The position numbers were made by a program, and so were the translations under genes. From the NCBI GenBank assembly GCA_964605095.1, contig CAZSBS010000003.1, positions 1 to 43,112 on the forward strand: a stretch of 43,112 nucleotides of DNA, given 5' to 3'. How positions within the stretch are numbered: position 1 is the first letter of the stretch; each line of letters begins with the position of its first letter. This document shows, one piece after another, positions 7,533 through 34,168 of this stretch. This stretch comes from an uncultured Planctomycetaceae bacterium. Its GTDB lineage: Bacteria; Planctomycetota; Phycisphaerae; SM23-33. Below the pieces are notes generated by a model. That model was given only the letters and a program-made list of their open reading frames with translations. It searched no databases and was not told the DNA's origin.

Positions 7533-7550
7533 CGCCCAGCCATGTTATGT

Positions 7551-17342: not shown

Positions 17343-17351
17343 GGCGACAGC

Positions 17352-17373: not shown

Positions 17374-17403
17374 TGCTTTTTCCTTCATCGGGTGAGCCGA
17401 AGG

Positions 17404-19704
17404 CTAATGTTCGACTGTTGTCAGCAGCGGCGCTTCGGCGGCGTCGTCAATGGCCAAGGCCTGTTCGAGCTTCATCGCGGTCATGAGCGATATGAGCCAT
17501 GAAAGCGTGGACTCGGCGCCCTGGTTGAGGTTGGGGCCGTCGGCGTGCAATCCGTCGCGGCAGCCGCCGGTCTGGTAGTCATAGATCATCGAGCGGGTCT
17601 CGTTGCTGCCCATGAACCAGTCCAGGAACCGCCTGGCGCAGCGAGCCCAGTTGCGGTCCTTAGTGGCCCGGTAGGCGTCGGCGCAGGCCTCGATGGTGGA
17701 CATCGCCTCGACGGGCTGCTGGTCGAACTTGGCCCGAGCGCCGCTTCGGCTCAGCCAGCCGCGGTTGCCGATCAGGCTGATCGACCCTTCGGCGGATGTC
17801 TGAAGCCGTACCAGCCAAGCCAGGCTCTCAAGGCCCTGATCGAGCATTCGCCGGTTCGACATCGACTGGCCGCAAAGGATCATCGCGTTTGGCAGCTTGG
17901 CGTTGTCATACGTCACGGTATCCTCGCACCATGGCCAGTCGGCTTTGGCACGCTCGGCAAAAAGGTGGTGGAGCCGCCCGCCGAGCACCCCCCGGACGCG
18001 CCGCACGTTGGTGTCGCCGGGAAACCGCTCCAGATAAGCATGCAGGCCAACCAGCGCGAACGCCCATGCCCGCGGCGACGAGAAGCCCTCCAGCGTTTCC
18101 AGGCTCGAACTCAGCAGCCGCGTCGCGAAAGACATTGTCGCCTCGTTGGGCGCCATCGACGTTGCCAGGCCTATGGCCCATATGGTCCGGCCATGGACGT
18201 CCTCGCTGCCGGAATCCTCCTGCCACTTGCGGTCATAGCTCATGAAGTTGCGGAACCGCCTGGTCTGTGGATTGAACGCGTGATACAGGAACGAAAGGTA
18301 CGTGTCCACCAGTGGCAGGACCTTGTCGTCGCGGCGAAGGTCGTAGCACATCAGGGCCGCGACAAGGGCCCGGGCATTGTCGTCGGCGCAGTAGCCGTGA
18401 TGGCGATCCGGCACGGCGTAGTTGGCGTGCTGGAAAACGCCCGTGTCGTCCGTAAGCCGTCGCAGGTGGGCGAAGTTCAGTTCCGGCAGGGCCTTGACGA
18501 TCAGCTCCGGGCGAAACGCCCGCTGAGGCCTCGGCCTGATCTGACGGTCGGCCACCATCTCCCTCGCCATCGCCAGATAGCTCTTGGCGACCTCTTTCCA
18601 AATCATGGACCGCCCGTGGTCGTAAGCCAGCTTGCGCATGGCCGTGCGCTCCGAGGGGTTCTCGATGAGCCTCAATATGGCCTTGGCCATCGCCTCGGGG
18701 TCCCTGAAGGGCACCAGCACGCCGCGTCCGTCGGCCAGGATCTCCTGGGCATGCCAGTACGGCGTCGAGACCACCACCTTGCCCGCGCCAACGGCGTACG
18801 CCAGCGTGCCGGACGTGATCTGGTCGATGTTGTGATACGGCGTGACGTATATGTCCGCCGCCCCGATGTAGCCGCACAACTCCTCGATACTGACGTACCG
18901 ATTGCAGAAGACCACATGCTCGCCCAGGTCCAGTTCTTCGACCAGCCTCTTGAGCGAGTCGCGGTACGCATCGCCCTCGTGCCGAAGAAGGTGGGGATGA
19001 GTGGCCCCGAGAATCACGTACGTCGTCTCGGGGTGAGCCTCGATTATCCGCGGCAGAGAGCGGAGAACCACCTCGACACCCTTGCCCGGCGAGAGCAGGC
19101 CGAACGTAAGCAGCACCAGCCGATCGCTCAGGCCGTAACGGTCCTTGTACTGGGCCGAGTCGGCAAAAGGCACGTCCGGGATGCCGTGCGGAATGCAGAC
19201 TATCTTCTCCGCCGGAACCTGGTAGACTCCGGTGAGAATCTCATTGGCCCTGGCGCTCATGACGACCAGCCGGTCGCTTGCCCGAGCCAGTTCCCGCATG
19301 ACGGCCCTCTGGCCGACAGACGGCTCGCGGGGCACCGTGTGAAGAGTCGTCGCCACCGGCATCCGCAGCCGGCTTAACAGGTCCAGCAGGTAGTTGCCGT
19401 CCTGCCCCCCGTATATGCCGAACTCGTGCTGAATGACCGTCAGGTCGATCTGGTTTACGTTGAGCATCTCCGCCGCGTTGCGATACTCCTCCTGCTGGTG
19501 GTCCGGAATCTGAAACCGCACCTCCTGAGAATACTCGTAGCCCTCCGGCACGTCGTCCATGGCGACGGCAAAGACCTGGCGGTCGCCCAACTCGGCTGCA
19601 AGCGCGTCGCGAAGGTCCTTGGCAAACGTCGCAATGCCGCACCGCCGAGGCACATAGCTGCTGACCAGCGCGGCCGTCTGAATCTGGCCCGGTTGTCCCT
19701 TCAT
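17404..19704 (-). CDS. GT4 (group 1) glycosyltransferase fused to a ~380-aa C-terminal all-helical (six-hairpin glycosidase-like) domain
   Basis: 766 aa. The N-terminal half (ALVSSYVPRRCGIATFAKDL, LLSPGKGVE, VTPYHNIDQITSGTLAYAVGAGKVVVSTPYWHAQE) is a typical GT4. The fold assignment for the C-terminal half (HGYCADDNARALVAALM, WAFALVGLHAY) is tentative. Confidence 0.8.
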   Translation of the reverse strand: MKGQPGQIQTAALVSSYVPRRCGIATFAKDLRDALAAELGDRQVFAVAMDDVPEGYEYSQEVRFQIPDHQQEEYRNAAEMLNVNQIDLTVIQHEFGIYGGQDGNYLLDLLSRLRMPVATTLHTVPREPSVGQRAVMRELARASDRLVVMSARANEILTGVYQVPAEKIVCIPHGIPDVPFADSAQYKDRYGLSDRLVLLTFGLLSPGKGVEVVLRSLPRIIEAHPETTYVILGATHPHLLRHEGDAYRDSLKRLVEELDLGEHVVFCNRYVSIEELCGYIGAADIYVTPYHNIDQITSGTLAYAVGAGKVVVSTPYWHAQEILADGRGVLVPFRDPEAMAKAILRLIENPSERTAMRKLAYDHGRSMIWKEVAKSYLAMAREMVADRQIRPRPQRAFRPELIVKALPELNFAHLRRLTDDTGVFQHANYAVPDRHHGYCADDNARALVAALMCYDLRRDDKVLPLVDTYLSFLYHAFNPQTRRFRNFMSYDRKWQEDSGSEDVHGRTIWAIGLATSMAPNEATMSFATRLLSSSLETLEGFSSPRAWAFALVGLHAYLERFPGDTNVRRVRGVLGGRLHHLFAERAKADWPWCEDTVTYDNAKLPNAMILCGQSMSNRRMLDQGLESLAWLVRLQTSAEGSISLIGNRGWLSRSGARAKFDQQPVEAMSTIEACADAYRATKDRNWARCARRFLDWFMGSNETRSMIYDYQTGGCRDGLHADGPNLNQGAESTLSWLISLMTAMKLEQALAIDDAAEAPLLTTVEH

Positions 19705-20307
19705 TCATTATCCCTGCCGGGCCGGCACGAGGTCGCAACCAGCCAATTAAACAGCAAATAAGCTCTCGCTCATTGTACTTGGGTAAGCAAAAAACTTGCG
19801 AGCAGCGGTCCCCCGGACGGGCAGACCGGAGGGATTGTATCACAACGCGCGGCACATTGCGAGGCGATACCCGGACACTCACCGGCCAATGAAGGCTCCA
19901 GGCCAGGAAAGATAACAACGTGACGCGGGGACTCAAGGATTCACGAATCCACGAAGAAGGGCTCGGGCCACCACCGAAGAAATGGCGCGGATGTGCTTCT
20001 GCCCTTTACACCGGGCGCCAAGTAACCAAACAACCGCTGCCCGACGGCCGCGAAAAACGTTGTGCCCGTGGCCGTGACCGCCGCGGAGTTCGTGGATCGC
20101 CTTCGCACCTGGGCGTCGGGGCGCTGCCTGTGCGGCTTCCAACCGAGGGTTTATCACCGGGGTGGCCAAGGCCCGGCGGTTCGTGGGCGGAAGGTTCCTC
20201 GGGCGTCGGCGAATTGACGAGGCGGCAGCCACCGTGTCCACCGCTCGCTCCAGCCAGGGCTTTCGTATGCTGCGGTGCTCAAGTGCTCAAAGCCCGATGC
20301 ATTGAAG

Positions 20308-21480
20308 CTACTTGACCGTAAACGTCGCCGTCGCGGGCTTGGTGATGAACGGCCCTGCGTCGCATTCGACCGTGGCAGTGAACGTTCCGCTCAGACCGTC
20401 GAGGGGCTGCCAGTTGGCGGACCAATTGCCGTTGCCCCAGTCCCAGCTCATTCCCATTTTGTAGACAGGCCTGTGCTGCGCGTCGCTGATGATAAGGGTT
20501 CTTTGGTAGTTCGCCCCGCTGTGGTCGCCGGGAAGCCAAATATCCGCAGGCATGCCGATCTCGTTGTGCTCGGAATAGTGAAACTCCGCCGTCCTCTCGC
20601 GAACTCGCGCCGTCAGCTTCCCCAGCAGGGGAGAGCTGAACGGCAGGCGGAAGACCTTGTCGGCCGAGATATCGAAATCCGCCCCTCCGGCGCCCGAGAC
20701 CATCTTGTAGCGGGGGACGTTGGGGTCCGCCGAGGAATACTCCGTGTATTTCGTGATGGTATATCGGCCGGGCGGGATCGGCACGGGGTCCATGCCGCCG
20801 GATAGGTCGAAGCTGGCGCCCTGGCCCTCCAGATGCGCCGACCATGCGGGGCGGCTGATCCTCACGCAGCAGGACGGGCCCCTGTAGGGCTTGGCCGAGA
20901 CCGTCTTGCCATCGGGAGAGACGCTCACGACATACAGCTTGCCGTCGACCGCCACGGGCAGGCCGTAAGAGCTGGAAGCCTGCATGCCGTTATCGAGGTA
21001 CACGACCACCCGGTCGTGTCCGATGTCCGAGGCATTGGATGCGGCGTCGCCCAGCCGCAGGTTGTTGTTCTCGTCGCGAATCCGGACTCTCCTCAGCTTC
21101 TTGCCGAACTGGCAGGCGCCCTCGGCAGTCACGCCCATGATGAAGCTCAGAGCGGGCGTCTGCCCCTCCCAATAGCTCGCCACAATATATCCCGGCACGT
21201 TGCCGTCCCCGGCGCCAACGTTCACCGACCTGGCCTCGAAGGTTGTCTGCATCAGCATGGGCAGGACGGAAGTGTCCACCGCCGGCTGTGCGGCGCCCCG
21301 GCTCTTGCTGGGGCCGTAAATGAACTCCTTGATTTGGTCGGGACTCACCCGGAAGTGAGGGGAATAGAACACCCGGCTGCGAGGGACGCAGACGGCGTGA
21401 TGAAAGTCGCCCTTGCCGGTCAGGTCGACTCGCAGCACGTCGAAATTCGACGATGACGGGGCCAGCGAGTCCAGCGCCAT
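20308..21480 (-). CDS. beta-rich hypothetical protein; either a separate gene or the frame-shifted C-terminal part of the giant upstream gene
   Basis: 390-aa ORF with protein-like composition and no signal peptide (MALDSLAPSSSNFDVLRVDLTGKGDFHH). It ends in TFTATVECDAGPF, which resembles the ALVVTVCEGGKP end of the upstream gene. It overlaps the formal upstream ORF by 491 nt in another frame. Confidence 0.6.
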   Translation of the reverse strand: MALDSLAPSSSNFDVLRVDLTGKGDFHHAVCVPRSRVFYSPHFRVSPDQIKEFIYGPSKSRGAAQPAVDTSVLPMLMQTTFEARSVNVGAGDGNVPGYIVASYWEGQTPALSFIMGVTAEGACQFGKKLRRVRIRDENNNLRLGDAASNASDIGHDRVVVYLDNGMQASSSYGLPVAVDGKLYVVSVSPDGKTVSAKPYRGPSCCVRISRPAWSAHLEGQGASFDLSGGMDPVPIPPGRYTITKYTEYSSADPNVPRYKMVSGAGGADFDISADKVFRLPFSSPLLGKLTARVRERTAEFHYSEHNEIGMPADIWLPGDHSGANYQRTLIISDAQHRPVYKMGMSWDWGNGNWSANWQPLDGLSGTFTATVECDAGPFITKPATATFTVK

Positions 21481-21481
21481 G

Positions 21482-24400
21482 TTTATTTGGCTTGCCGCCT
21501 TCGCACACGGTGACCACCAGCGCGCCGGGGTTGACGGTTCCGCAACCGGGCGCGGCCTTGGCGAAATACCTACTGCCCTTCAGGACGCAGGTATTCTCGG
21601 ACCCGAGGTTCGGCCTATCGACGTATCGGAGTTCGCCAGGCGGCGTAGCCGTCAGTTGGCCCGTAACGTGCTGTTGAAGGTCCTCCTCTTCTGTTCCCGA
21701 GTACCATACGTTGACGGCTTTTATCAAACCGTACTTGTCGTACGTGACGTACCGCCTGAACGGCCAGAGCTTCGTCGCGGTCGTGTCGGGCTTCGGCATG
21801 GTCCGTCCGACATCCGCCAGTATCTTCGGCATGGCGGCGCTTCGGATCACGCAGCGGCCGCAGGCCAGCACGTAACCCCACTTGGTGTTGAACGCTATGG
21901 ACGCCGCCCTGTCGAACAGGGCGGTTATGCCCGCCGAAGACTCCCATGCACCGCCGTCTTCACGAGTGAACTTGACCCGGTCGCCTTCATAGCTTCCATA
22001 GTTGGCCCCGGCCGAGGCCAGAACCACCGCCCCGAGCCCGTCGTTGGTCACGGACAGGTAGTGTGGAATTTCCTCGTATCGGTATTCCGCCACCGCCTGG
22101 CCCGCCGACCACGCGTGTCCGTCCCACGCATACCGCTCCAGCCGGGCGAAGGCCTTCATCGCCCGACCCTGGATGGCCGTGTTCAGCTTGCACCAGTTTG
22201 TGGGCGCTTCGGGGAGGTTCACCGTGACGTAGGCCTCCAGCCCGCCGGAGGCCGTCGGCAGGATCCTCGCGATCCGCCCGAACGGCAGCTTCGGACTGTT
22301 GTCGGCGGCGACCGGGTCCCATTTGTACCCGTCGCTGCTCGACAGCAACTCCAGCCGGCCAGGGTCGCCAGGGACGTAGTTCGCCCAGAGCCCTTTGCCG
22401 TCCGGGTGGAAGTGCATCTCTACGCGTCCGGCCGCGCCGTCGCGAATGGTCATCGCACAGATGAACCGCCCGTTGGGCAACTGCACGAGGTCGTAATCCT
22501 CGCATGACTTGTCGCGGACCAGGGACGGGGCGCTCCAGTGGACGAAGTCGCGCGACCAGCACGCATAGACCAGGCAGCGGTGCTGTGCGTCGCGGTTGGA
22601 GCAGAAGGTGAGCAGGAACCGGCCCGTCTCGTCCCGCAGAAGGCGCGGCTCGTCCTCGCACCACGCGCTGGAGACCGGCAGGGGCAGCCTGGCGGGCGTG
22701 CTGAAGGCCTTGCCGTCCGTGCTGACCGACGACCACAGGTCGCCAGCCTCCGACCAGACCAGGCGGATGGCCTGGCCGTCGAGCTGGATCGTGGGGCCTC
22801 TGTCCTGCTTGGTCGGGAAGGGGCAGGGGACCTCACCGTCCCGGCCAAGCAAGCCTGCGACTACCGATGAGTTGGAGCCGGCGTCTTTCCACGGCAGCCG
22901 CCCCATCAAGCGGGTCGTCTTGCCAGGCTGGACGGCCAACCTGGTGGTCCACTGGCCAAGCGGGCTGTGTTCGCTTGCGCCTTGCAGCGTGACCGTATGC
23001 TCCCCGGCCGAGAGCGGGCCGACAAGGCCCGGGCCGAACCGCCCGAGCGCCCCATCCACCGTCACGCGGAAGCATTCCGCATCCTGGCATTGCACATACA
23101 GGGAACCAGGCTGGGTTACCTTCTCCAGGACGGCCTCAACGATCACTCCGCCAAGGCTGACGCCGACAGACTCCGGCTGGGCCGGGATGACGGCCAGATC
23201 GGCTTCCAGCATGCCAGTGTGCGGCGCGGGATCGAAGAGCAGCCCGTCCTGGCAGGCCTTGTCCAAGGCCAGCGACTTGGAATCGATTTCCTTCCTGCCC
23301 CCAAACGTATGAAGCGTAATCTTCATGACCCCGTCATTGCCCTGCGAGATCGACTTGAATCGCAGAGACTTGAACACGTATCCCGATTCGGCCAGGAGTT
23401 TCATCGACTCGTTATACCTGCTGGGACAGTAAACCGCCTGCTTGTCCCTGCTCCTGGTGAGATACCCGTACATCTGAATGGGCTGCGACAGCCGAGACTC
23501 GTCTTGCGTTCTGCCCGGGCCAAAGTGCAGACTCGTTCTTTTCATACTCTCAAAGTTGCTATTGAAGAGCGTGCTGTCAGGCATGAGCTGGCCCGTCATC
23601 GCGTAGTCGCGGACGAGGCTGAGAATCTCGATGTTGTTTTCGTTCGGCCCGGCGTTGTCCATCAGCGGGGCGCTCATTGTTATGGCCCGGCGGTATTGGC
23701 CCGTGCCGGCAAGGATGCCGAGCATCTTTTTGTGCGCCCACTCGGCCCCTGTCATTGGCTTTGTGACGTTGTTGCATCCGCATGCCACGTCGGCACTGGC
23801 GAACCGCTTGGCGAACGTTGTGTAGAGCGCCAGGAGCTGCTCCGGCGAGGCTCCGCCTGCCTCAAACGTATTGGCGTATTCAGCCAGGGCGTCGCCCATC
23901 CGCGGGTGCAGGCAGCTTAGATACACGAACCGCTCCAGCTCGCGGCGGGCGTGGTCGTAGCGGTTCATGAAGTAATACATCTTGCCGACCCAGTACACCG
24001 CCTCCACGTAGTTCTTGTCCTCACGCGAGGCGTCGCGGAACTTCACCCAGCCTTCGGCGTACCGGCCCTGGTCATAGAGGTGCATGCCTTCGTAGAGGGC
24101 CCGCACGGCTGGGATGCTTCGCGTCCACATGGGCAGCGTCTTCAGAATCTCCCCGGCCGACTTCTTGGTGAACCACGCCATCGCGTCGGCGGAGAGTTGC
24201 TTCTGGAGGTCGATCGCCTGGCCGGTCGTGCCGGTGACGGTCTTTCGGAAGACTTCATTGCGCGAGCGGACCTCGACGATCTGGGCCGTGATCTCAAGCT
24301 GGTCATCCTTCACGCTGCATACGCCGGTGACGAGATACTCGATGCCTAGCTGCGAGCGGACGGAGCCCATGACCTTTTCGTTGCCCGTAGCGAACTCGGG

Positions 24401-24778
24401 CGCCCACTTCATCTGCTGGGCGATAAGCTGCATGCGGTCGCGGGCGATGACGGACAGCGAGCGGTCCTGGACCAGGTCGGTGGCCATCTGGTCGGACATG
24501 AACTTCTCCAGCCAGACCCAGTCATCCTGGCCGGTCTTCAACTGGAAGTTGAACACGGCCAGGTTCGTCGCGGCCGCGGCCTGGCTGGCGGCGGGCAGGA
24601 GAATGGCAAGGAAGGCCAGGGCCATTGGGATGATCACCCTCACCCGGCCCTGACGGGCCGACCTCTCCCTCAAGGGAGAGGGGATCACCCTCACCCGGCC
24701 CTGACGGGCCGACCTCTCCCTCAAGGGAGAGGGGTTCATGCGGACGCAAGTAAGCAGTTGGCGGCTTTGCGTTTTCAT
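21482..24778 (-). CDS. giant secreted protein: CsgG/LpoB-like module, TPR repeats and a large beta-rich region with Asp-box-like motifs; its 3' end is disrupted
   Basis: The credible coding frame runs from the ATG at 24778 (GGAG 7 nt upstream; an alternative ATG is at 24625) to the PNK codons ending at 21482. The formal ORF continues to 20990 as Arg/Gly/Pro-rich junk. Recognisable motifs are NLAVFNFQLKTG...VIARDRMQLIAQQ (CsgG-like), YDQGRYAEGWVKFRDA (TPR), and SVSTDGKAFS, SSSDGYKWD and REDGGAWES (Asp-box-like). Confidence 0.65.
24632..24733. repeat. 51-nt palindrome-containing element in two perfect tandem copies (REP-like)
   Basis: GATCACCCTCACCCGGCCCTGACGGGCCGACCTCTCCCTCAAGGGAGAGGG occurs at 24632-24682 and again at 24683-24733. 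Each copy holds two hairpins: CGGCCC-TGAC-GGGCCG and CCTCTCCCT-CA-AGGGAGAGG. Confidence 0.97.
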
Positions 24779-24790
24779 CGGCAATCTCCG

Positions 24791-25756
24791 TTACTGAGGC
24801 TGACCGCTGGTGCTCGCCGCGGGCTGGGTGGCGGCCGGCTGAGTCTTGGGCATCAGGTCCGCGGGGGTGAGGCGTTCGACGGTGGAGTTCTTTTCCTTCT
24901 CGCGGGCGTCGGCGAGCAGTTTCTTGGCAAACTCGGCGTGAATCGAGTTGGGCTCGCGTTTGAGGAAGTCCGCCAGGTCGATGGCGGCGTGTTCCGGTTC
25001 GTTAAGCCGGCTGTAGCACAGGCCGGACCAAAAGAGCGTTTCGGAGAAGTCGGGGTTCAGGTCGAGCGTCCGCATGAACCCCATGATGGCGGCGTTGAGA
25101 TTGCCGCTGTAGTAGCTGCTCAGCGCCTGGCCGAAATGCAGGCTGGCGATGGGCATCTTGTCGATCTTCGCCGGGTCGATCGCCGGCAGCGGCATCGACA
25201 TCTGCTTTGCCAGGTTGCGCGACAGTTGCAGGGCGTCCTCGACGAGATACTCCGGCCTGGTCGCGAGCTGGGCCGCGCCGGCGACCCGCTCGGTGGCGAT
25301 ATCCATCGCCTTGGCTGTCACGGTGAGCTTGCCCTGGACGAGGTACAGGCTGCCGGTGACCACGGTGTCGGCGTGGAACAGCTTGCCCGCGGCGACGGCG
25401 TACTTCTCGCCGGTCAGCCCGCGGAGCGAGCGTGCCTGCTCGGCCGTGAGGGCGTCAAGCCGCTGGCGCTCGACGACGCGGATGCCGTCCTGCTGGGCCA
25501 GCATGACGGCGATGAGGTCGCCAATCCCGGCCCCGGCGGGGTCGTACTGGTCCTGGCCCGTCGCGTTATCGAAGGCCACGGCGAAGATGACTTTCTGTAC
25601 GCTCTTAGCGGGCCGGGTGGTGGGCGACGGCTTGGCGGCCGCGGCCGACTTGGATGAAGGTGCGGGTGTGGGTGCAGCCCCCGATTGCCCCACGGCCCAG
25701 ACCGCGAGGACGAAGGCCGCCGATGCAAGCAGAGCGATGATTACCGACGTCTTCAT
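24791..25756 (-). CDS. secreted CsgG/LpoB-like module fused to TPR repeats (321 aa)
   Basis: The ATG at 25756 (AAGGA 7 nt upstream) gives the signal peptide MKTSVIIALLASAAFVLAVWA. The module reads VIFAVAFDNATGQDQ...IGDLIAVMLAQQDGIRVVERQRLDALTAEQ...AAGKLFHADTVVTGS. The C-terminal part is TPR-like (LNAAIMGFMRTLDLNPDFSETLFWSGLCY). The track start at 25840 (GTG) reads through a heptamer repeat. Confidence 0.78.
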   Translation of the reverse strand: MKTSVIIALLASAAFVLAVWAVGQSGAAPTPAPSSKSAAAAKPSPTTRPAKSVQKVIFAVAFDNATGQDQYDPAGAGIGDLIAVMLAQQDGIRVVERQRLDALTAEQARSLRGLTGEKYAVAAGKLFHADTVVTGSLYLVQGKLTVTAKAMDIATERVAGAAQLATRPEYLVEDALQLSRNLAKQMSMPLPAIDPAKIDKMPIASLHFGQALSSYYSGNLNAAIMGFMRTLDLNPDFSETLFWSGLCYSRLNEPEHAAIDLADFLKREPNSIHAEFAKKLLADAREKEKNSTVERLTPADLMPKTQPAATQPAASTSGQPQ

Positions 25757-25774
25757 GATGATGTCCTTTATGGT

Positions 25775-25806
25775 GGTAGCCGGTAGCCAGTAGCCGGTAG
25801 CCGGTA
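25775..25806. repeat. tandem heptamer (GGTAGCC) x ~4.6
   Basis: GGTAGCC GGTAGCC AGTAGCC GGTAGCC GGTA lies in the 90-nt spacer. It is followed by CTGTAGTCTGAAGCCTGTA (25809-25827). Confidence 0.93.
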
Positions 25807-25846
25807 TTCTGTAGTCTGAAGCCTGTACCCAATCCTGCACAATTCG

Positions 25847-26953
25847 TCACTTGTTTACTGGCTGTGAAGCCGCAGCCGGGGCCTTGTCCGCGGGCGTTTT
25901 CTGCTCGGCTAGTTTTCGGCAGACCTCGAGGCCCAGTCGTCGCCCGGCCAGTTGGAGGGCTGTTTTGCCGGCGGTGTTCTCGGCAAGGTCAACCGCCCGT
26001 GTGGTGTGCCTGTCGGCCAGGACTATGGCGCCGGTCTTTCGGCTGATGACGTTGATTTCCGCGCGGGCCGTGCAGGTTACCAGGTCGCCCGTGCGGATGG
26101 CGAACTCGCTGAACGCCTCGCCGACTATGACGTAGTCGGCATCGGCCAGCGCCACCGGCCAGGGCCTTTTGTCGCTTTTGCCCTTCATCATGTCCCTGGC
26201 CCAGTCGGCCAGGTCGTTTAGTCCGGAGTCGACGACGTTGAACTTGCACTTAATGAGCGTGCGTTTGATCTCGGTTTCAACGGCGGGGTCCACCACGGCC
26301 CGTGGCACGGCGCGCTCGATATGGTGCTCCGGCACGATCACCGCAACGGTCGGCCTGGGCGTCTTGCCCAGGGCCTTGAGGATAGGCGCGATCTGGTCGG
26401 CAAGCTCGATGCCCTTGGGCAGCAGGCCGGCGGCGTGCTTGTCTATCAGGCCCGCCACATCCTCGGACAACAGCGTCAGCGTGTCAGAAAGCGGCTTGCT
26501 CAGTTCGACCGTGCGGATGGTGCCCTTGACCAGCCCGGTCTCCACGCCGACGACCTTGGTGACGATCATGAGCTTCTTGTCCATCACGAACGCCTTGCCC
26601 ATGACCATTAGTTTGGCGCCAAGCAGTTTGCCCACCTTGGCGGCCTGGCCCTGGTCGACCAGCCCCACAAGTTTGAGCTTCTGCTCCTGGAGTATCTTGC
26701 TTATGCCGGAGCGTTCGACGAGTTGGAAGGAGTCCTCCACGCTCAGCCTGGCCGTCAGGACGTCGGCCATCTGCGTGCCCATGTCAGTGTTGCCGGGCGC
26801 GGATGCCTCGTAATCCAGCACAGCCACCGTAACGCCCTGAACGGGCTGGGTGGCGGGGTCAGGGCCGCCGGATGCCTCGGCCGCCCGGGCAGGCAGGCAC
26901 GTGCCGGCTGCCAGGATTGCGGCGATGAAAGTCATAATGGTTTTCATGTTCAT
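25847..26953 (-). CDS. secreted two-domain protein with an N-terminal CsgG/LpoB-like module (368 aa)
   Basis: The signal peptide is MNMKTIMTFIAAILAAGTCLPARA. The module reads VTVAVLDYEASAPGNTDMGTQMADVLTARLSVEDSFQLVERSGISKILQEQKLKLVGLVDQGQAAKVGKLLGAKLMVMGK. A second alpha/beta half starts at TVAVIVPEHHIER. A GAAGGAG RBS is present. Confidence 0.78.
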   Translation of the reverse strand: MNMKTIMTFIAAILAAGTCLPARAAEASGGPDPATQPVQGVTVAVLDYEASAPGNTDMGTQMADVLTARLSVEDSFQLVERSGISKILQEQKLKLVGLVDQGQAAKVGKLLGAKLMVMGKAFVMDKKLMIVTKVVGVETGLVKGTIRTVELSKPLSDTLTLLSEDVAGLIDKHAAGLLPKGIELADQIAPILKALGKTPRPTVAVIVPEHHIERAVPRAVVDPAVETEIKRTLIKCKFNVVDSGLNDLADWARDMMKGKSDKRPWPVALADADYVIVGEAFSEFAIRTGDLVTCTARAEINVISRKTGAIVLADRHTTRAVDLAENTAGKTALQLAGRRLGLEVCRKLAEQKTPADKAPAAASQPVNK

Positions 26954-26954
26954 G

Positions 26955-28004
26955 TTATCTGTGCTCCTTCGGTCGTGGGAACCGTTTGAGGATCCACATC
27001 ATTATCTCGCTGAGCATACATCGCCCGACGGGGTCGGTGTAGCAGTCTGTCAACTGCGGCATTGTCACGGCCAGGACGACGCCCTTGTCGAGCGGTCGCG
27101 CCACGGCCAGGGTATATCGGGCGGCGGGGCATCCCCCCGTGGCCTCGCCACGTGTTTCGAACCAGACAAGCACCTCGGCGTTAGGGTCCGCCGCAAGGGC
27201 GCAGGCTAACGTCGGCCTGGCAAAGTCCGACTCCCTGACCGTCGAGGCAAGCCCTTCCGCTAGGCGGACCTCGGCGGCCCTCGGCGCGGGCAGTTCGGTT
27301 CGCCTCACGCCCAGCGTCTCCCACCCGGCGGGGGGGTTTAGGACGACAAGCGCCATGCCCTGGCGAACCCGGCCCGCCATTGCCGCGCAGGCGGCGGCGA
27401 GCATATTCGCGTCGTCGAACCCGGCCATGATCACGATCCCGCCGCGAAAGAAGTCGTTCTCCAGTTGCGGCCTGAGGTCCGTGAACGCCACTTCCTGCGC
27501 TTTCATCGCGGCCTGCACAAGGCCGTGGGGGTCCATAAGGCCCAGCCCGCGATTAGCCAGGGTTGCCCGGACATCTCGAAGCATCATGGCGGGCAAAATG
27601 TCAACTCGACGCGAAGCCTCCCGGCCCGCACTGAGGACCGACAACGCCGCCTCGGTGCGCACCAGCACGTCAGGCAGCGTAACGCTCGCCTGACCGCGCC
27701 CCAAGGCATCCAGCCGGGCCAAGCCTCGTCCGAGGACCACCTTGCCGCATCGCAGTTCCCACGCCGCCTCGCCGCCGGGCGCGGCCGATATTGCCGCCAG
27801 CAGTTGGCTGCCTCCCAGGCACGCCTTGGCCGGCTGGGGCTCCGCCTGTGCGGCGACCAGGTCCACCGGGACTATCGAGACTATCTCCGCCCGTGCCGGC
27901 CGGCTGACGGGCCTCGATTGCCCACCCGCAATCGGGCAAATAAGACAAATCCCGCCCACCATCCTCATCGCCGCCATCACGTTCCACTTTCTACCCCCGA
28001 ACAT
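26955..28004 (-). CDS. secreted hypothetical protein (349 aa)
   Basis: An AAGGAG RBS lies 8 nt before the ATG at 28004. The N-terminal hydrophobic segment is MAAMRMVGGICLICPIAGG. The composition is protein-like and the stop lies 1 nt before the next start. I recognise no family. Confidence 0.65.
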   Translation of the reverse strand: MFGGRKWNVMAAMRMVGGICLICPIAGGQSRPVSRPARAEIVSIVPVDLVAAQAEPQPAKACLGGSQLLAAISAAPGGEAAWELRCGKVVLGRGLARLDALGRGQASVTLPDVLVRTEAALSVLSAGREASRRVDILPAMMLRDVRATLANRGLGLMDPHGLVQAAMKAQEVAFTDLRPQLENDFFRGGIVIMAGFDDANMLAAACAAMAGRVRQGMALVVLNPPAGWETLGVRRTELPAPRAAEVRLAEGLASTVRESDFARPTLACALAADPNAEVLVWFETRGEATGGCPAARYTLAVARPLDKGVVLAVTMPQLTDCYTDPVGRCMLSEIMMWILKRFPRPKEHR

Positions 28005-28048
28005 TGCATTAGCTCCTTTTCCAACCCGCCGGCACGTGGCTTCATGGA

Positions 28049-28966
28049 TCAGCTCACGCCCGCGTTTAGAGGAAGGGCCTGGATGATTACCCGCAGGTCC
28101 TTGCCGGCGACCCTGAGCCAGCCGATCTCCTCGGCGCCGTTGCCCACCCGCACTTTCCCGCTGATGCCAACCGAATTCTCGCCGCCATGGCCGACGGTCA
28201 GGGCAACGTTGGTGTGGCTACCGGACGAGTCCACCTCCATGTTCAGCGGCATGCCCCAAAGCCTGCCGACATCCGCCAGGGACAGCCTGCCTATCGCCTG
28301 CCGGGGCAGCAGAAGGTTGCTCCTTTCCACCACCTTGCCGTCGGCGGAAACGAGGATAAGCCGAACCACGATCGGCCGGTCCGCCTCGGTCGGCTTGGGG
28401 CCGTTGACATATCCGAACTCGCCGCTTTGGCCGCTCAGGAGGATCCACGGGCGGGAGGCCTCAGCCCCGTCGGCAACCTCAGCCCAGATGTTTCGCAGGC
28501 GCTGCATCTCGGCGGGCTGCAATTGGCTTGCGGGGATCGGATCGGTCCCATTGACACCGGCTAACATCTGCCGGCGCAGGAGCACGTTGGTCTGGTGGAC
28601 ATCCACCGCCAGGAAAATGGACGCCGCCACGACCGCCGCGCCAGCCAGCCGCCAGAATGCCCTTCTCCCGAGCGGCAACACCAATCGCCGCCGGATCGCG
28701 GGGCTGGCGGCGTCAGCATGTTCCCCGCCGGTTCGGGACCCGGCAAGGGCTGTCGGCAGGTTGATTGGCAGCGACCGGTCGTCCACGGGGTACCCGTAGG
28801 CTGCCCTGGCCAACTCCCGCGTCTGGATCATCTCGCCCAGCAGGCCGCGAAGATGCTCATCCCGGGCGATCCGCTTGAGCAGGGCCACTCGTTCCGCGTC
28901 GTCGCACCGGCCGCACAAGAGAGCGTGAATCGAGCGTTCCGTATCGAGTTGTTCCTGTTCAGTCAT
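28049..28966 (-). CDS. zinc-binding (ZAS-type) anti-sigma factor, single-pass membrane protein
   Basis: H-x3-C-x2-C is present as HALLCGRC at residues 14-21. The TM helix is FWRLAGAAVVAASIFLAV. A ~170-aa extracytoplasmic domain follows. The start overlaps the sigma factor stop (ATGA). Confidence 0.8.
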   Translation of the reverse strand: MTEQEQLDTERSIHALLCGRCDDAERVALLKRIARDEHLRGLLGEMIQTRELARAAYGYPVDDRSLPINLPTALAGSRTGGEHADAASPAIRRRLVLPLGRRAFWRLAGAAVVAASIFLAVDVHQTNVLLRRQMLAGVNGTDPIPASQLQPAEMQRLRNIWAEVADGAEASRPWILLSGQSGEFGYVNGPKPTEADRPIVVRLILVSADGKVVERSNLLLPRQAIGRLSLADVGRLWGMPLNMEVDSSGSHTNVALTVGHGGENSVGISGKVRVGNGAEEIGWLRVAGKDLRVIIQALPLNAGVS

Positions 28967-29550
28967 GATATGCCTTCCGGAAAGTCCCGCTGCATGATGG
29001 TCCGCAGTTGCTTGCGGGCCTCATGCACGCGTGAGCCGACGGTGCCAACCGGCACCTTCAAGACCCCGGCCGCCTCTTCGTAGGTGTACCCGTCCACCAC
29101 TGTCGCCACGAAGGCCGACCGCAGCGCTACCGGCAACTCTTCTATGGCCTGCCGCAGGTGTTGCATCGGCTCGTCCATGTCGTGCCGCCTCCCTGTCGAA
29201 TTGCCGTCCACCAGCATCAGGGCCCATTCGTCAATAGCCTGCGACGGCCCCGATAACCGCTTCCGCCGCCAGTCGGTAACACAATTGACAAGAATCCGAT
29301 GCAGCCACGTTGTCGGCAGCGACCGGCCGTTAAAGGCGCCCCAACTGCCCAGCGCCTTTAGAAATGCCTGCTGGGTCAGGTCCGACGCGTCGTCGTGGCT
29401 TCCCGTCATCCTCAATGCTGTCCGAAACAGCCTGGGATACCACGCGCTGATCTGTTCATCTGTCGGCCTTGTCACTGCCGCGTCGGCTCCCAGTCTTTTA
29501 CATGATCCCCGAATCGCCGTCCCACACCCGCTACATATGAGACGGTCCAA
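28963..29550 (-). CDS. ECF-type RNA polymerase sigma factor
   Basis: Region 2 reads YPRLFRTALRMTGSHDDASDLTQQAFLKAL...WLHRILVNCVTDWRRKR. Region 4 reads LPVALRSAFVATVVDGYTYEEAAGVLKVPVGTVGSRVHEARKQL. The start is uncertain: TTG at 29550 in the track, or an alternative GTG at 29475. Confidence 0.88.
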   Translation of the reverse strand: MDRLICSGCGTAIRGSCKRLGADAAVTRPTDEQISAWYPRLFRTALRMTGSHDDASDLTQQAFLKALGSWGAFNGRSLPTTWLHRILVNCVTDWRRKRLSGPSQAIDEWALMLVDGNSTGRRHDMDEPMQHLRQAIEELPVALRSAFVATVVDGYTYEEAAGVLKVPVGTVGSRVHEARKQLRTIMQRDFPEGIS

Positions 29551-29580
29551 GGTACTTATAATTCGGTCAGGGGGCCATTT

Positions 29581-29609
29581 TATTTATCGTCCCCCTGGGG
29601 GCCTGCGAA
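29581..29609 (-). promoter_or_regulatory. possible promoter of the ECF operon: TTCGCA - 17 nt - TAAATA
   Basis: On the minus strand TTCGCA lies at 29609..29604 and TAAATA at 29586..29581. The spacer forms the hairpin CAGGGGG...CCCCCTG. Confidence 0.3.
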
Positions 29610-30238: not shown

Positions 30239-30748
30239 ATGCAGTGTCCCTTCTGCGGACAGGATAAGGACCGGGTAATCGACTCGCGCAGCAGCGACGG
30301 AGGGCGGGTGGTCCGCCGCCGCCGCCAGTGCGAAGCGTGCAGCCGGCGTTTTACCACGTACGAGCGTGTCGAGGAGACAGTGCGCCTGACGGTTCTCAAG
30401 AAGGACGGCTCGCGTCAGCCATACGACCGCCAGAAGGTGATCCAGGGCTTGGGGCAAGCCTGCTACAAACGCCCGGTCACGGATGCGCAGATTCGCGGGA
30501 TCGTGGAGGCGACGGAAGAGGACATTTTCCGCCAGTTCGAGAAGGATGTTCCGTCGGACTTCATCGGCGACACGGTTGGCCGGCACTTAGAGAGCATTGA
30601 CAAAATTGCTTACATTCGATTCGCCAGCGTATACCGCCAGTTCGCGGATGTCGGCGAATTGATCGAAGAAGCCAAGGGCGTCAAGGAGATGCCCGCGTGC
30701 GGCCCGGAACAGAAGGACCTGTTCGAGGACAACGAGAAGCCTGGATAG
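30239..30748 (+). CDS. nrdR: transcriptional repressor NrdR (zinc ribbon plus ATP-cone)
   Basis: MQCPFCGQDKDRVIDSRSSDGGRVVRRRRQCEACSRRFTTYERVEE is the invariant NrdR zinc-ribbon N-terminus. The ATP-cone follows (LTVLKKDGSRQPYDRQKV). Confidence 0.95.
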   Translation: MQCPFCGQDKDRVIDSRSSDGGRVVRRRRQCEACSRRFTTYERVEETVRLTVLKKDGSRQPYDRQKVIQGLGQACYKRPVTDAQIRGIVEATEEDIFRQFEKDVPSDFIGDTVGRHLESIDKIAYIRFASVYRQFADVGELIEEAKGVKEMPACGPEQKDLFEDNEKPG

Positions 30749-30752
30749 CGAG

Positions 30753-30816
30753 CCGGAACAAGTGAGCATTTTCCGGTGTCAAAATTCGAAATCGAAAGCA
30801 CGAAATTCGAATTTTG
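30753..30816. repeat. hairpin plus an A/T-rich palindromic, CGAAA-word repeat between nrdR and the next gene
   Basis: The hairpin is CCGGAA-12 nt-TTCCGG (30753-30776). Next, CAAAATTCGAA (30780-30790) is the inverted repeat of TTCGAATTTTG (30806-30816). CGAAA/CGAAT words recur about every 7 nt. Confidence 0.8.
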
Positions 30817-30849
30817 ATTGCCCAGGCTACAGGACAAGGAAGGTGCTGC

Positions 30850-31401
30850 GTGGACGGATCAAGGAAGATCCGAGTCATTAAGGGCGACTCGACGGAGGAG
30901 CCCTTCGATGCCCGCAAGCTGGCCGCGTCCATGTTCCGCGCGATGGAGGGCAGGCGGGGGCGCCTGTACGACGCGGTTCAACTTTCAATCGCCATCGGCA
31001 TTTACCTCAAGCGAAGCTCCTTGCTGACCGTTACCTCCGATGCCCTGAGCGAGTTTGCGGTCAAGGTGCTCCGGCGATGCCGGCTGAGCGAGGCCGCCTC
31101 AGCCATGGAAGACTTCCGCCAGCGGCGCCGTATCCGCCGCACGCGGCTTGCCGTGCGGCACGAGGGCGGCAAGGTGACCATGTGGGACAAGGGTTGGCTC
31201 AGTTCGTGGGCCCAGAGCAGTTGGCTGCTGTCCAGGACCACGAGCCGCATCCTGGCTGGGCAGGTCGAGCGGGAGTTGCTGGACAGCGAGGCCATTGTCG
31301 TTTCCCGGCTGGAGGTTCTGGACATGCTCAACCGCCGCGTGGCAGAATACGGCCTGGCCGACGCCGTGCCGGTGCGTCAGCCGGCAACCACCGCGAGGTA
31401 A
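30850..31401 (+). CDS. stand-alone protein made of two ATP-cone-like domains
   Basis: The preferred start is GTG at 30850, with AAGGAAGG 6 nt upstream; the track ATG is at 30814. The first cone reads IRVIKGDSTEEPFDARKLAASMFRAM...VTSDALSEFAVKVL. The second, more divergent, reads LAVRHEGGKVTMWDKGWLSS...VSRLEVLDMLNRRVAEYG. Confidence 0.65.
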   Translation: MDGSRKIRVIKGDSTEEPFDARKLAASMFRAMEGRRGRLYDAVQLSIAIGIYLKRSSLLTVTSDALSEFAVKVLRRCRLSEAASAMEDFRQRRRIRRTRLAVRHEGGKVTMWDKGWLSSWAQSSWLLSRTTSRILAGQVERELLDSEAIVVSRLEVLDMLNRRVAEYGLADAVPVRQPATTAR

Positions 31402-31408
31402 TGAGCTG

Positions 31409-34168
31409 ATGACTGAACGTGAATCACATACGACGGCCAGGGCGGGATCGCCCGATACGGGCAAAGCCGAGTCGCTTCTGGACCGCGCCCCCGGCGGGGC
31501 CGGAAGGAATATCCTGCTTGCCGTGGCGCTGGCGACTGTCGTCCTGGCCGTAATGATGGTCTGGTCCGTGCCGCGCCCCACGGGAGACCTCTATGTCGGC
31601 CTGGCGGCGGGGCGAGACATCATGGCCGGCAAGATGGGGCAGGTCGATGACTGGTCCTTCATGACCGAAGGCAGGGTCTGGATCAACCAGAACTGGGGCA
31701 CGAACCTGCTGTACTGGATTTCCAATGAGCTCGGCGGCGAGGCGGGGCTTCTGGTCCTCAAGGTCCTGATCATAATGACGGGGACGCTTTTCCTGATCCT
31801 GGCCTGCCGGCGGCGCGACGCGGACTGGCCCGTGGCGCTGCTAGTCTCGGCCGGGGTTATCGCGGCCGGGAGAAGCTTCATCGACCTTCGTCCAAACCTG
31901 ACCACGCTGATGTTCGTGCCGGTCATGCTCCACCTGCTCTACCGCACCACGGAAAAGCCGGGGCGGATCTGGCTGACGATGCTGGTCTTCGGCGTGATAT
32001 GGGCGAACCTGCACGGCGGGTTCACGCTGGGCCTGCTGGCGATGTTCTTCTGGGCGACGTGCGTGGTGATCCTGCCGATGCTCGGGCGGGAGAGGCTGGC
32101 GGCGTGGGTGCCGGGCGTTGCCATCGCGGCCTCGGTCGCCGCGAGCTTGTGGTACATTGTCGACGCAAACTCCGGTGCCGCGGTCACGCGGTCGGTCGTC
32201 GGCCCGACGCGCTCCCTCATCGTCATGGTCTTGCGAAACCTGCTTGCACCCGAGGTCATCTGGTCCGGCGTGGGCTTCGCCTCGACGCTGGCAATCTGGT
32301 ACGGCATCCGCCGGAGCGTCAGTAGAGGCGGCCAAGCCGGCCCAGGCGGCGGGGGCGAGCCGGTCGCGGATCGCATCAAGGAGCACCTTCGGGCGAAGTG
32401 GCCTTACCTGGCGGCGGCGTTTGGGGCGGTGGTGCTGGCGGGCGTTGTTACTCCGTTCGGCATACACAACGCATTCCGCGACTTCAGCAAGCTGAGCATG
32501 CCCTTCTGGGAGATGTGGAACCTGACGCATCCGCTCGTGGTGACGTTTGGCGCGGACAGCGACGTCTGGCGTAGCGTGATCGAGTGGAACAGCATTTTCA
32601 CAGCCTCGCCCAGCACGTTCGGCACGTCGTGGGAGTTTTTCGGCATCGTGGGTCTTTTCTGCACGCTGGCGCCACTGGGCGTGGCGATCAAGATCAGCCA
32701 GCGCAAACTGCTGGACGTCGAGGACTATGTCCTGCTGGCTGTGATCGTTGGCCTGTGCGTGGCCATAGTCGCCCAGGCTGCGCCCGTTCACAGTGAGTTC
32801 GGCAAGATGATCGACAAGGCTGAATTCGAGCACAGCGTCTCAGCCGACGCGCTGCACAGCGTCCAACTCCAATACTACGGCTGGCTTACGGTGATGATCG
32901 TCTACCCGCTGATAGGGCTGTTTACGGTTGGCGTTTCAATTGCGGTGATATCGGCCTGGATGGTCCGGCGGGAGATGGCGCCGTGGAGCGCCGAGCGGAT
33001 CGGCATCGTGGTCTTCGACGTCTGCATGGCGGCGGGGGGAATCAAGATGGCCTTCGGCGCCCGGAGGTTCATGCCGCTGGCGCTGATGCTGCTGGCGCCG
33101 CTGCTGGCGCGCCGCATGCAGTGGCTGGTCGGCTGGGTGGGCGACATTGTGACTGGCCGGGAGGATCCCGGCCGCGAAGAGGCCGGTCGGGGGGCCGCCG
33201 CCGCGAAGCCGCAGTTCACCCCGGCCCAGGGGCTAACTTGGCACCTGCCGACCATCTTCATCGGCCTGGCTGTCATGGTCGTCATCGGCATCCAGGCCGT
33301 GGCGAACTACAAACGCTACCGCACCGACAGCCCGCTTGTGCAATACCGAAGTGTGCTGAAGAACATGATCGTCTACCAGATGTTCTGTCCGCACGCCAAG
33401 GACTTCATCGTGGCCAACGACCTGTCCGGCAGGTGCTTCAACGAATGGAGGTGGGAGGGCTACCTGCGCTGGTACTGCCCGAAGCTCAAGATGCTCATCG
33501 GCGGGCGGGCCCAGCAGGCCTACGCGATCGAAACCTATAAGTTCCAGCGGAACCTGCTCGGAGGCCTGGTGCCGCTGAGCAAGCTTCAGGATATGGGCGT
33601 CCGGTGGGTGATCGTCCCGATGAACGGCACGTACGACTCGTTCATTCGCAGGGCCGTGTCTGACCCGGGCGCGGTGTGGGTGCCGATCTTCTACGACGGC
33701 GAGAACGTAATCCTCGCCAACTCCCGCCTGCCGGAGTGCCGGGAAGTCATCCGCCGGTGCCTCGCCTCGACACTGGCGTACCCCAACAAGGCCTACGCGC
33801 ACCTCAGCAGGGGCATGTGCCTGAACTCCGCGGTGATAAACCTTCCCATCCAGGCCTTGGCGGACATCAAGAAGGCCCAGCAGCTCGAGCCGATATCCAT
33901 GTCCTACGTCATGCTGAGCGAACTGTACAGTCGCGTGCCCCTCGAAAAGGGCGAGATCAACTATCTCGAAGGCGAGAACCGTCGCCTGGAGAAAATGGAC
34001 TACCATTGCCTTAACGGCTTCGAGATACTCCGCAGCCGCTACTACGCGCTGAGCCTGCTTGCCCGGTACTACAGGCAGACCGAGCAGCAAACCGAGCTAG
34101 CCCGCGTCGCCGCCGAGACGGCGGAGTTGAATGACCTGATGGGCCGCATCCTCGACGAGTGGGACTGA
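31409..34168 (+). CDS. large polytopic membrane protein, GT-C/PMT-like (tentative), with a C-terminal TPR-like soluble domain
   Basis: The ATG at 31409 lies 8 nt after the previous stop. The upstream part of the track ORF overlaps the ATP-cone gene. About 15 hydrophobic helices are visible. The first loop reads DLYVGLAAGRDIMAGKMGQVDDWSFMTEGRVWINQNWG. The C-terminal ~250 aa are helical-repeat-like. Confidence 0.7.
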   Translation: MTERESHTTARAGSPDTGKAESLLDRAPGGAGRNILLAVALATVVLAVMMVWSVPRPTGDLYVGLAAGRDIMAGKMGQVDDWSFMTEGRVWINQNWGTNLLYWISNELGGEAGLLVLKVLIIMTGTLFLILACRRRDADWPVALLVSAGVIAAGRSFIDLRPNLTTLMFVPVMLHLLYRTTEKPGRIWLTMLVFGVIWANLHGGFTLGLLAMFFWATCVVILPMLGRERLAAWVPGVAIAASVAASLWYIVDANSGAAVTRSVVGPTRSLIVMVLRNLLAPEVIWSGVGFASTLAIWYGIRRSVSRGGQAGPGGGGEPVADRIKEHLRAKWPYLAAAFGAVVLAGVVTPFGIHNAFRDFSKLSMPFWEMWNLTHPLVVTFGADSDVWRSVIEWNSIFTASPSTFGTSWEFFGIVGLFCTLAPLGVAIKISQRKLLDVEDYVLLAVIVGLCVAIVAQAAPVHSEFGKMIDKAEFEHSVSADALHSVQLQYYGWLTVMIVYPLIGLFTVGVSIAVISAWMVRREMAPWSAERIGIVVFDVCMAAGGIKMAFGARRFMPLALMLLAPLLARRMQWLVGWVGDIVTGREDPGREEAGRGAAAAKPQFTPAQGLTWHLPTIFIGLAVMVVIGIQAVANYKRYRTDSPLVQYRSVLKNMIVYQMFCPHAKDFIVANDLSGRCFNEWRWEGYLRWYCPKLKMLIGGRAQQAYAIETYKFQRNLLGGLVPLSKLQDMGVRWVIVPMNGTYDSFIRRAVSDPGAVWVPIFYDGENVILANSRLPECREVIRRCLASTLAYPNKAYAHLSRGMCLNSAVINLPIQALADIKKAQQLEPISMSYVMLSELYSRVPLEKGEINYLEGENRRLEKMDYHCLNGFEILRSRYYALSLLARYYRQTEQQTELARVAAETAELNDLMGRILDEWD

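Follow-up and report, generated by a model that had tools for sequence, protein, structure and literature searches.

An ECF-sigma-headed operon conserved in uncultured Phycisphaerae and beyond, with predicted exported proteins of the LpoB/TolB-N fold and a frameshifted giant

What kind of system is encoded where an extracytoplasmic function (ECF) sigma factor heads a row of exported proteins with recurrent CsgG/LpoB-like modules? The question is raised by an operon at positions 20,308 to 29,609 of a 43,112-nt stretch (hereafter the window) of contig CAZSBS010000003.1, assembly GCA_964605095.1, from an uncultured Planctomycetaceae bacterium of the Phycisphaerae. The operon is conserved yet uncharacterised, and its parts are recognisable: envelope genes that are co-conserved with an ECF sigma factor, and scaffold-type proteins of the LpoB/TolB-N fold. 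Our preferred reading, to which we give a probability of roughly 0.45, is that this Phycisphaerae-type planctomycete has an ECF operon under autoregulation, the exported products of which would form a periplasmic scaffold with variable, glycan-binding giant proteins; the descriptive parts of this reading are graded much firmer than the mechanism. The original prediction, made from the DNA letters, had found no described pathway that the ensemble matched. Literature searches agreed, yielding no characterised system and no paper joining ECF sigma factors, CsgG-like proteins and Planctomycetes. CsgG, LpoB and TolB contexts go unmentioned in the main text of the ECF reclassification paper.

Open reading frame (ORF) calling placed all ORFs of the operon on the minus strand of the window (Table 1). 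In order of transcription they encode the ECF sigma factor, a 305-aa candidate anti-sigma factor, three exported proteins (g3, g4 and g5) and a giant protein, each exported product bearing an N-terminal signal or anchor sequence. Seven same-strand ORFs had been proposed; the shared strand stands, but the genes number six, the ORF taken for gene 7 being the frameshifted 3' portion of gene 6, the giant. The ATGA overlap of the sigma and anti-sigma genes (28966/28963) is present as described. Tight packing, put at gaps of 1 to 90 nt, holds for the anti-sigma/g3, g3/g4 and g4/g5 spacers (44, 1 and 90 nt, the last with g5 starting at 25756) but not for the g5-giant spacer of ~165 nt. Scans for terminators and sigma-70 promoters gave background level only, with no minus-strand terminator within the operon, and a PADLOC scan for defence systems returned zero hits.

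Table 1. Positions of the operon genes and associated features in the window.
Feature	Position	Strand	Description
ECF-type promoter-like motif GAATT-N15-CGTCT	29540..29564	-	directly upstream of the sigma gene; not repeated elsewhere in the 43 kb of the window
ECF (group 4) sigma factor, 170 aa	28963..29475	-	probable start GTG 29475; Sigma70_r2 and Sigma70_r4_2
Putative single-pass anti-sigma factor, 305 aa	28049..28966	-	ATGA overlap with sigma; invariable next gene in relatives
g3, exported, 349 aa	26955..28004	-	small unnamed family
g4, exported, 368 aa	25847..26953	-	two tandem LpoB/TolB-N/CsgG-N-like alpha/beta domains, residues 41-177 and 202-350
g5, 321 aa	24791..25756	-	signal/anchor, Pro/Ala-rich linker, single module, tetratricopeptide (TPR) repeats
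Two tandem 51-nt hairpin units, like repetitive extragenic palindromes (REP-like)	24632..24738	-	Tandem Repeats Finder: 2.1 copies, 98% match
Giant, 5' part, 1048 codons	21481..24625	-	signal peptide, module, TPR, helical, PEGA/Ig-like beta, BNR-like propeller; then out of frame to 20990
Frameshift site ...AAT AAA C ATG...	21478..21487	-	one surplus nucleotide relative to in-frame homologues; +1 shift needed for read-through
Giant, 3' part ('390-aa protein')	20308..21480	-	beta-rich C-terminal region, ends in the family's conserved ...GTFTATVECDAGPFITKPATATFTVK

The fold of the exported proteins was approached through g4. This protein exceeded the gathering score of Pfam CsgG (PF03783; 44.6 bits, cut-off 20.8) and, marginally, that of Pfam LpoB (PF13036; 23.3 bits, cut-off 22.3). 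Its AlphaFold model (pLDDT 85.5, pTM 0.78) consists of two tandem beta-alpha-beta-alpha-beta3-alpha domains, both compact and without long membrane hairpins. Foldseek matched the model to the CsgG pre-pore, a chain of the Vibrio LPHT ring, LpoB, the TolB N-domain, FlgT, PelC, GNA1162 and LptE. CsgG was the top match, yet its TM-score (TMt) was 0.3–0.4, against ~0.6 for LpoB (4q6l, 4q6z). The TolB N-domain (2ivz, 1c5k) superposed with a root-mean-square deviation (rmsd) of 4.3 Å over ~150 columns; the LPHT ring chain 8z5n_0 (352 residues) aligned over 305 columns, and a separate FlgT match (3w1e) over 176. On the LpoB equivalog model TIGR02722, g4 scored 20.5 bits against a cut-off of 110.6. 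It has the fold of LpoB but is not an LpoB orthologue.

The module recurs in g5 and the giant. Pfam matches of g5 were CsgG (29.1 bits, cut-off 20.8), TPR_9 (4e-5, below cut-off) and FlgO (0.012). The window's giant had no CsgG Pfam match; its module is tied in by hhalign and by a shorter homologue (P0178), whose module passes FlgO at 29 bits and which also exceeds the cut-off for TPR_11 (27.7 bits, cut-off 26.8). In hhalign comparisons the N-terminal modules of g4 and g5 were related at 99.2% (E 1.6e-19), those of g5 and the giant at 95.2% (E 2.5e-8), and those of g4 and the giant at 88% (E 3e-6); module plus TPR of g5 against the giant gave 98.7% (E 2e-16). Pfam matches above cut-off, the confident g4 model and the Foldseek neighbours bear out the proposed CsgG/LpoB/FlgO/TolB-N fold, and the modules of g4, g5 and the giant share this CsgG-N/LpoB/TolB-N/FlgT fold. 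Three paralogous modules had been counted; the paralogy is upheld, but the fold copies in the operon total four, since the C-terminal half of g4 carries a second beside the single copies of g5 and the giant. The proposed fusion of two copies to TPR repeats applies to g5 and the giant, although their own TPR matches fall below gathering scores.

Does the fold imply a CsgG/HfaB-type secretion channel for a fibre or adhesin, as the original prediction could be taken to mean? The Pfam CsgG scores of g4 and g5, the top Foldseek rank of CsgG and the name 'CsgG/HfaB family protein' that NCBI gives to g4 homologues all point that way. Set against them, g4 covered positions 33–97 only of the 210-position profile, leaving the hairpin-bearing part of it unmatched, its model lacks the long membrane hairpins, and structural similarity to CsgG is lower than to LpoB. 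A relaxed lipobox occurs in just 12 of 66 g4-family members, 8 of 33 giants and one of 13 g5 proteins; g4 of the window has a non-canonical AGTC, followed by an A-R-A site resembling the signal-peptidase-I type. No curli (CsgA/B/E/F) or holdfast (HfaA/D) partners were found in the operon, in the ten flanking ORFs or among the called genes of related loci, as had been noted for the operon itself. Because the hairpins are missing, the lipobox is unconserved and no curli or holdfast partners were found, g4, g5 and the giant are predicted not to form a CsgG-type secretion pore, and we regard a fibre or adhesin channel as highly improbable. It follows for annotation that 'CsgG family' labels in these phyla should not be taken to imply curli-like channels.

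The giant extends the module with TPRs and a beta-rich region in which Asp-box-like motifs had been pointed out. The analysis supports this as a BNR-like propeller region with degenerate Asp-boxes. Once the frameshift is repaired, SxDGxx[F/W] motifs start at residues 635 and 763; both are conserved and fall one residue short of the canonical SxDxGxTW. The propeller region has weak sialidase matches in the PDB. Against BNR_2 (PF13088) the giant of the window scored 11.8 bits, below the cut-off of 31.4, and a homologue (P0177) scored 32.4 bits, above it. The TPR stretch matched TPR_19 at E 0.017, under the gathering score; among 33 full-length giant homologues (a set that does not include P0178), TPR_11 (best E 1.6e-6) and TPR_19 (best E 6.2e-6) were each detected in 10, and other TPR families in fewer. 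Distal regions vary across the family, with a long C-terminal region here, a CBM9 domain above cut-off in one homologue (P0183) and ankyrin repeats in two others (P0200, P0207).

This domain order invites comparison with the machinery that coordinates wall and outer membrane. The exported proteins could be planctomycete functional analogues of LpoB, CpoB and TolB, acting in the periplasm as adaptors, either reaching the peptidoglycan synthases or anchoring the outer membrane, with induction under envelope stress. The g4 fold fits LpoB and the TolB N-domain at the values given above, and the giant joins a TolB-N-like domain, a TPR stretch weakly matching TIGR02795 (YbgF/CpoB; E 0.0024, well under cut-off) and a beta-propeller, echoing TolB plus CpoB; homologues carry the JGI names 'TolB-like protein' and 'TolA-binding protein'. 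Several observations run counter to this. Scores on TIGR02722 and TIGR02795 are far under the cut-offs, the propeller is BNR-like and not of the PD40 type of TolB, and tol, pal and penicillin-binding protein (PBP) genes were not found in the window. In addition, giants are dispensable and polymorphic across relatives, which would be unexpected for core envelope machinery. We therefore consider a coordinating role of this kind improbable.

The giant gene of the window is interrupted. GC content at third codon positions (GC3) indicated that the coding frame moves from that of the giant to that of the downstream ORF, listed by the original prediction as a separate 390-aa protein, at ~21480–21520. 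The giant frame remains open to 20990, giving a 490-nt overlap of the two ORFs that is Arg-rich in the giant frame. The mechanically called giant ORF runs from 24784 to 20990, and the start is most likely the Met at 24625. When the shift was repaired in silico, the resulting 1438-aa translation aligned without gaps to the 33 full-length homologues across the junction (...VVTVCEGGKPNK followed by MALDSLAP...), and ~40 single proteins of 1340–1460 aa spanned 98–100% of it. The 390-aa sequence itself matched residues 1075–1252 of the single 1294-aa giant of a Phycisphaerae metagenome-assembled genome (MAG; locus L008) at E 9e-16. With the GC3 switch, the colinear homologues and the conserved C-terminus in agreement, the 390-aa ORF is the C-terminal third of the giant, severed from it by a single surplus nucleotide at ~21481; the annotation should be corrected to a giant that is frameshifted here, and the '390-aa protein' is no independent family.

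An assembly from another sample, independent of ours (L001), has the identical frameshift site, with 99.97% identity over 21 kb and no indels, and a one-off assembly error is therefore unlikely. Programmed +1 frameshifting is also unlikely, as no recognisable slippery or stop-codon-stimulated site was found. A third-frame TAA (CCAAATAAACATG) was considered as the lost stop between two genes and rejected, that frame having more stops and being Arg-rich, and the homologues being continuous. The two pieces differ in what they retain. A signal peptide is lacking in the C-terminal piece. The N-terminal one, with 1048 residues and then 164 out of frame, is similar to natural "short" giants, which stop after the propeller. 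The single long giant of this genome is reduced to an N-terminal product of short-form type with an out-of-frame tail. Giants divided into two ORFs occur in two further loci (L018, L050), at other positions.

Upstream of the giant, the 51-nt hairpin unit is confined to the g5-giant spacer within the window. Each unit contains two GC-rich hairpins, CCTCTCCC-TTGA-GGGAGAGG and GGCCC-GTCA-GGGCC, and RNA folding of the spacer gave -89.8 kcal/mol (z = -4.7). Translation of the units produces the spurious 'SPLRERSARQGRVRVI' repeat that heads the mechanical giant ORF. The hairpin spacer could attenuate or stabilise the transcript before the giant gene. The g4-g5 spacer likewise holds a tandem repeat (25775–25831; 7-nt unit GGTAGCC x4.6, alternatively scored as a 21-nt unit), which yields the text 'TGYWLPAT' in a longer, GTG-started g5 ORF.

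Conservation was assessed from g4 outwards. At least 254 g4 homologues were found, the named ones all from Planctomycetota MAGs, and a scan of 185,579 species genomes recovered 162 relatives spread over Phycisphaerae, Pirellulales, Thermoguttaceae, Verrucomicrobiota, Acidobacteriota and Omnitrophota. The gene order is kept in ~20 close loci, across Planctomycetota: sigma, anti-sigma, g3 and g4 come first, g5 or a g4::g5 fusion follows, and one or more giants close the row. Among the 58 g4 loci with sufficient flank, a same-strand ECF sigma gene lies within 3.5 kb upstream of g4 in 38 (Planctomycetota, Verrucomicrobiota and Acidobacteriota), and g3 adjoins g4 in 24, as judged with a hidden Markov model. 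Verrucomicrobial and acidobacterial loci carry two to five tandem g4-like genes. The g3 family is small, with 109 representative clusters among 1.84 billion proteins in a full HMMER search; g3 had no Pfam or PDB sequence match, and no Pfam domains were detected even in longer family members. Residues 40–137 of its model have Ig-like Foldseek matches, which suggests an Ig-like beta-sandwich at the N-terminus, followed by an alpha/beta C-terminal part with conserved Cys.

The giants are the changeable part of these loci. Some loci have none and others at least four giant ORFs, and both short and long forms exist. In several loci one or more long giants come after a short one, and in GCA_964564285.1 (L009, 6084–19119) three complete tandem giants (1460, 1343 and 1347 aa) follow g5, a fourth being cut by the contig end. 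The closest relative (L010), whose g4 is 89% identical, is without g5 and giant; 725 nt of its sequence (8141–8866) stand in the place of 5.9 kb in the window (19939–25875), and its g4, of 403 aa, has a different C-terminal end. From this comparison of loci, the conserved core of the system is sigma, anti-sigma, g3 and g4, with g5 and the giants as a dispensable, fast-evolving add-on.

At the head of the operon, the ECF sigma factor of the original prediction was confirmed by Pfam matches to Sigma70_r2 (8e-15) and Sigma70_r4_2 (6e-14) and by the ECF superfamily model TIGR02937 (75.1 bits, cut-off 42.9). No NCBIfam equivalog model came near its cut-off, the best being SigM (92 bits versus 190). 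The mechanical sigma ORF extends from a TTG at 29550 to 28963. Since this TTG sits within a promoter-like motif, GAATT-N15-CGTCT, the start is probably the GTG at 29475; sigma orthologues in relatives are 165–187 aa long. The motif recurs in 8 of 19 close loci at a distance of 584–630 nt before the sigma stop, and in a ninth at -758. Of the 20 matches in 321 kb, 10 fall in these nine loci, since L012 has two overlapping copies. In an unbiased dyad count the GAATT...CGTC dyad emerged as a genuine non-coding signal; the top dyads reflected coding conservation (WYP codons, sigma region 2) and were rejected as promoters. A search upstream of sigma for the canonical ECF promoter GGAAC-N16-CGT gave nothing conserved. 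The positional conservation of GAATT-N15-CGTCT suggests an autoregulated ECF promoter. Another GAATT...CGTCT copy lies immediately 3' of the last giant gene of L012 (12014–12047) and hints at a further sigma-dependent unit past the contig end.

In the 305-aa protein, a helical domain at the N-terminus is followed by a transmembrane helix at ~104–123 and a beta-rich periplasmic domain of ~175 aa. This protein had been called a zinc-binding anti-sigma (ZAS) factor. The HALLCGRC motif (H-x3-C-x2-C, residues 14–21) and the one transmembrane helix are indeed present, but the label is unsupported because HxxxCxxC is unconserved and the orthologues searched match no anti-sigma profile. Cys21 is restricted to the window and its closest relative, and Cys18 is present in about half of 21 orthologues; beginning at residue 14, the motif leaves insufficient space for the usual upstream fourth ligand. 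None of 13 orthologues matched zf-HC2 (PF13490) or other anti-sigma Pfam families at E<=1. The window's own protein had no Pfam or NCBIfam match, and a PDB sequence search returned six chance-level matches to unrelated proteins (E >= 0.11). Homology searches with its periplasmic domain came up empty against g3, g4, g5 and the giant and against Pfam and PDB.

The direction of signalling is the point at which a second reading departs from a scaffold. In a trans-envelope sensor, g3, g4, g5 and the giants would be the input of the sigma factor and not its output: giants would bind an extracytoplasmic ligand (glycan) by way of propeller and CBM-type heads and relay the event through module and TPR to g4, g3 and the periplasmic domain of the anti-sigma factor, much as in FecA-FecR-FecI or RseB-RseA. 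It is in keeping with this that g3 and g4 remain beside sigma and anti-sigma where g5 and the giants have been lost, as in the closest relative, and across phyla, and that giants are polymorphic, multi-copy and exchange distal domains like ligand-specific receptors. Residues 97–295 of the giant (module plus TPR) also weakly resemble TIGR04510, named in NCBIfam as a putative peptide modification system cyclase (E 0.0066). Arrangements of module plus TPR are also found as the periplasmic portions of cyclases, kinases and regulators that are bound to the membrane (COG5616). Counting against a sensor, the anti-sigma periplasmic domain lacks homology to any partner or known sensor domain, the locus encodes no outer-membrane transducer or protease, and the two to five tandem g4-like genes of Verrucomicrobiota and Acidobacteriota better fit a structural hetero-oligomer than a co-sensor. 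We judge a sensor to be possible, though on the unlikely side.

In the scaffold reading that we prefer, the membrane protein would act as the anti-sigma factor, and an envelope signal would release sigma and raise expression of the whole set. The module-bearing proteins would then dock through their modules and TPRs into a hetero-oligomeric periplasmic scaffold near the outer membrane, in the manner of FlgO/P/T and PelC, which have this fold too; the Foldseek targets include such ring or scaffold precedents in the CsgG nonamer, the PelC dodecamer and the LPHT ring. Single-ORF g4::g5 fusions of 620–640 aa are common in relatives, and because such fusion proteins exist, g4 and g5 are likely to associate physically. 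The propeller and the carbohydrate-binding-type distal domains of the giant would make up the variable end that binds a ligand, which is probably glycan or cell wall.

Several points weigh against this account. The 305-aa membrane protein is a candidate anti-sigma factor by its context, and in roughly half of the close loci the promoter-like motif has diverged too far or is missing. The AlphaFold model of g3 has a pLDDT of 58, its fold being confident only for residues 40–137. The BNR and TPR matches of the window's own proteins lie under the Pfam cut-offs. The giant is broken here and absent from the closest relative, which argues that its function is dispensable in this lineage. Sequence alone, finally, cannot separate a scaffold from a sensor role. 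A more speculative version, which we hold to be doubtful, would make the locus an undescribed trans-envelope system of Planctomycetota for both sensing and handling glycans, in which interchangeable giant heads (BNR propeller, CBM9 or other distal domains) stand on a constant TolB-N-like plus TPR foot and a periplasmic base of g4, g5 and g3 gates a new anti-sigma family. If this were true, ligand specificity would be altered by gain, loss, duplication or truncation of giants, changes of the sort observed here.

The envelope of Planctomycetota is unusual and poorly understood, and to our knowledge neither signal nor regulon is known for most of the many planctomycete ECF sigma factors. The operon is a widely conserved case that ties an ECF sigma factor to a defined set of exported LpoB/TolB-N/FlgT-fold proteins, and through it the organisation of the envelope or the sensing of polysaccharides could be approached in a lineage of uncultured Phycisphaerae.

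Other genes and repeats of the window were also recorded. Divergent from the operon (30239–34168, plus strand) lie NrdR, an ATP-cone-only protein (195 aa) and a 957-aa multi-pass membrane protein with no Pfam match; the trio is operon-linked in L001 and L002 and occurs also in L010. Downstream of the operon, across a 600-nt gap (15732–19704, minus strand), a 766-aa glycosyltransferase of family GT4 with a long C-terminal extension is followed by a GH130 (mannoside phosphorylase-like) protein. This pair is retained in L010 and is probably outside the system, because it is missing from more distant loci. At 34781–35815 (plus strand), a 344-aa protein with MqsA-antitoxin/helix-turn-helix and SocA-Panacea domains points to a toxin-antitoxin-type element, and a small ORF upstream of this gene is called in L001. 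Two tandem repeats, perfect or nearly so, lie side by side at 7480–7588 in a stretch that looks intergenic: CAGATTT x7.6 and GTCCGCGCCTGAA x3.1.

Among known systems, CsgG/HfaB (PF03783) shares with g4 and g5 an N-terminal alpha/beta core scoring above the gathering threshold, and CsgG is the top structural neighbour. The operon proteins differ in matching about one third of the profile, in lacking transmembrane hairpins and a conserved lipidation site, in the tandem fold copies of g4 and the added TPRs of g5 and the giant, and in having no CsgE/F/A/B or HfaA/D partners. LpoB, TolB-N and CpoB are closer in fold, being the same small fold with the best TM-scores (~0.6 for LpoB), and the giant repeats the logic of a TolB-N-like domain, a propeller and TPRs. 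Unlike these proteins, those of the operon are far under the equivalog cut-offs, have a BNR-like and not a PD40 propeller, are not conserved lipoproteins, and are headed by an ECF sigma factor without tol-pal or PBP context.

The Vibrio FlgO/FlgP/FlgT H-ring and the PelC dodecamer of Pel export consist of same-fold proteins, several different ones or many copies of one, that assemble periplasmic rings under the outer membrane. The likeness extends to the alignment of g4 with the LPHT ring chain and to FlgO Pfam matches in g5 and a giant homologue. In contrast to those rings, the operon has no flagellar or pel genes nearby, fuses TPRs to the module, adds distal glycan-binding-type domains on the giant and is placed under ECF control. 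The operon resembles FecI-FecR-FecA and sigmaE-RseA-RseB in that translation of its ECF sigma factor is coupled to that of a single-pass membrane protein, a promoter-like motif conserved close to sigma suggests autoregulation, and exported proteins encoded downstream are co-conserved. It departs from them in that the anti-sigma candidate matches no known anti-sigma family and its HxxxCxxC is unconserved, and in that the partners here are LpoB-like-fold proteins and not TonB-dependent transducers or RseB.

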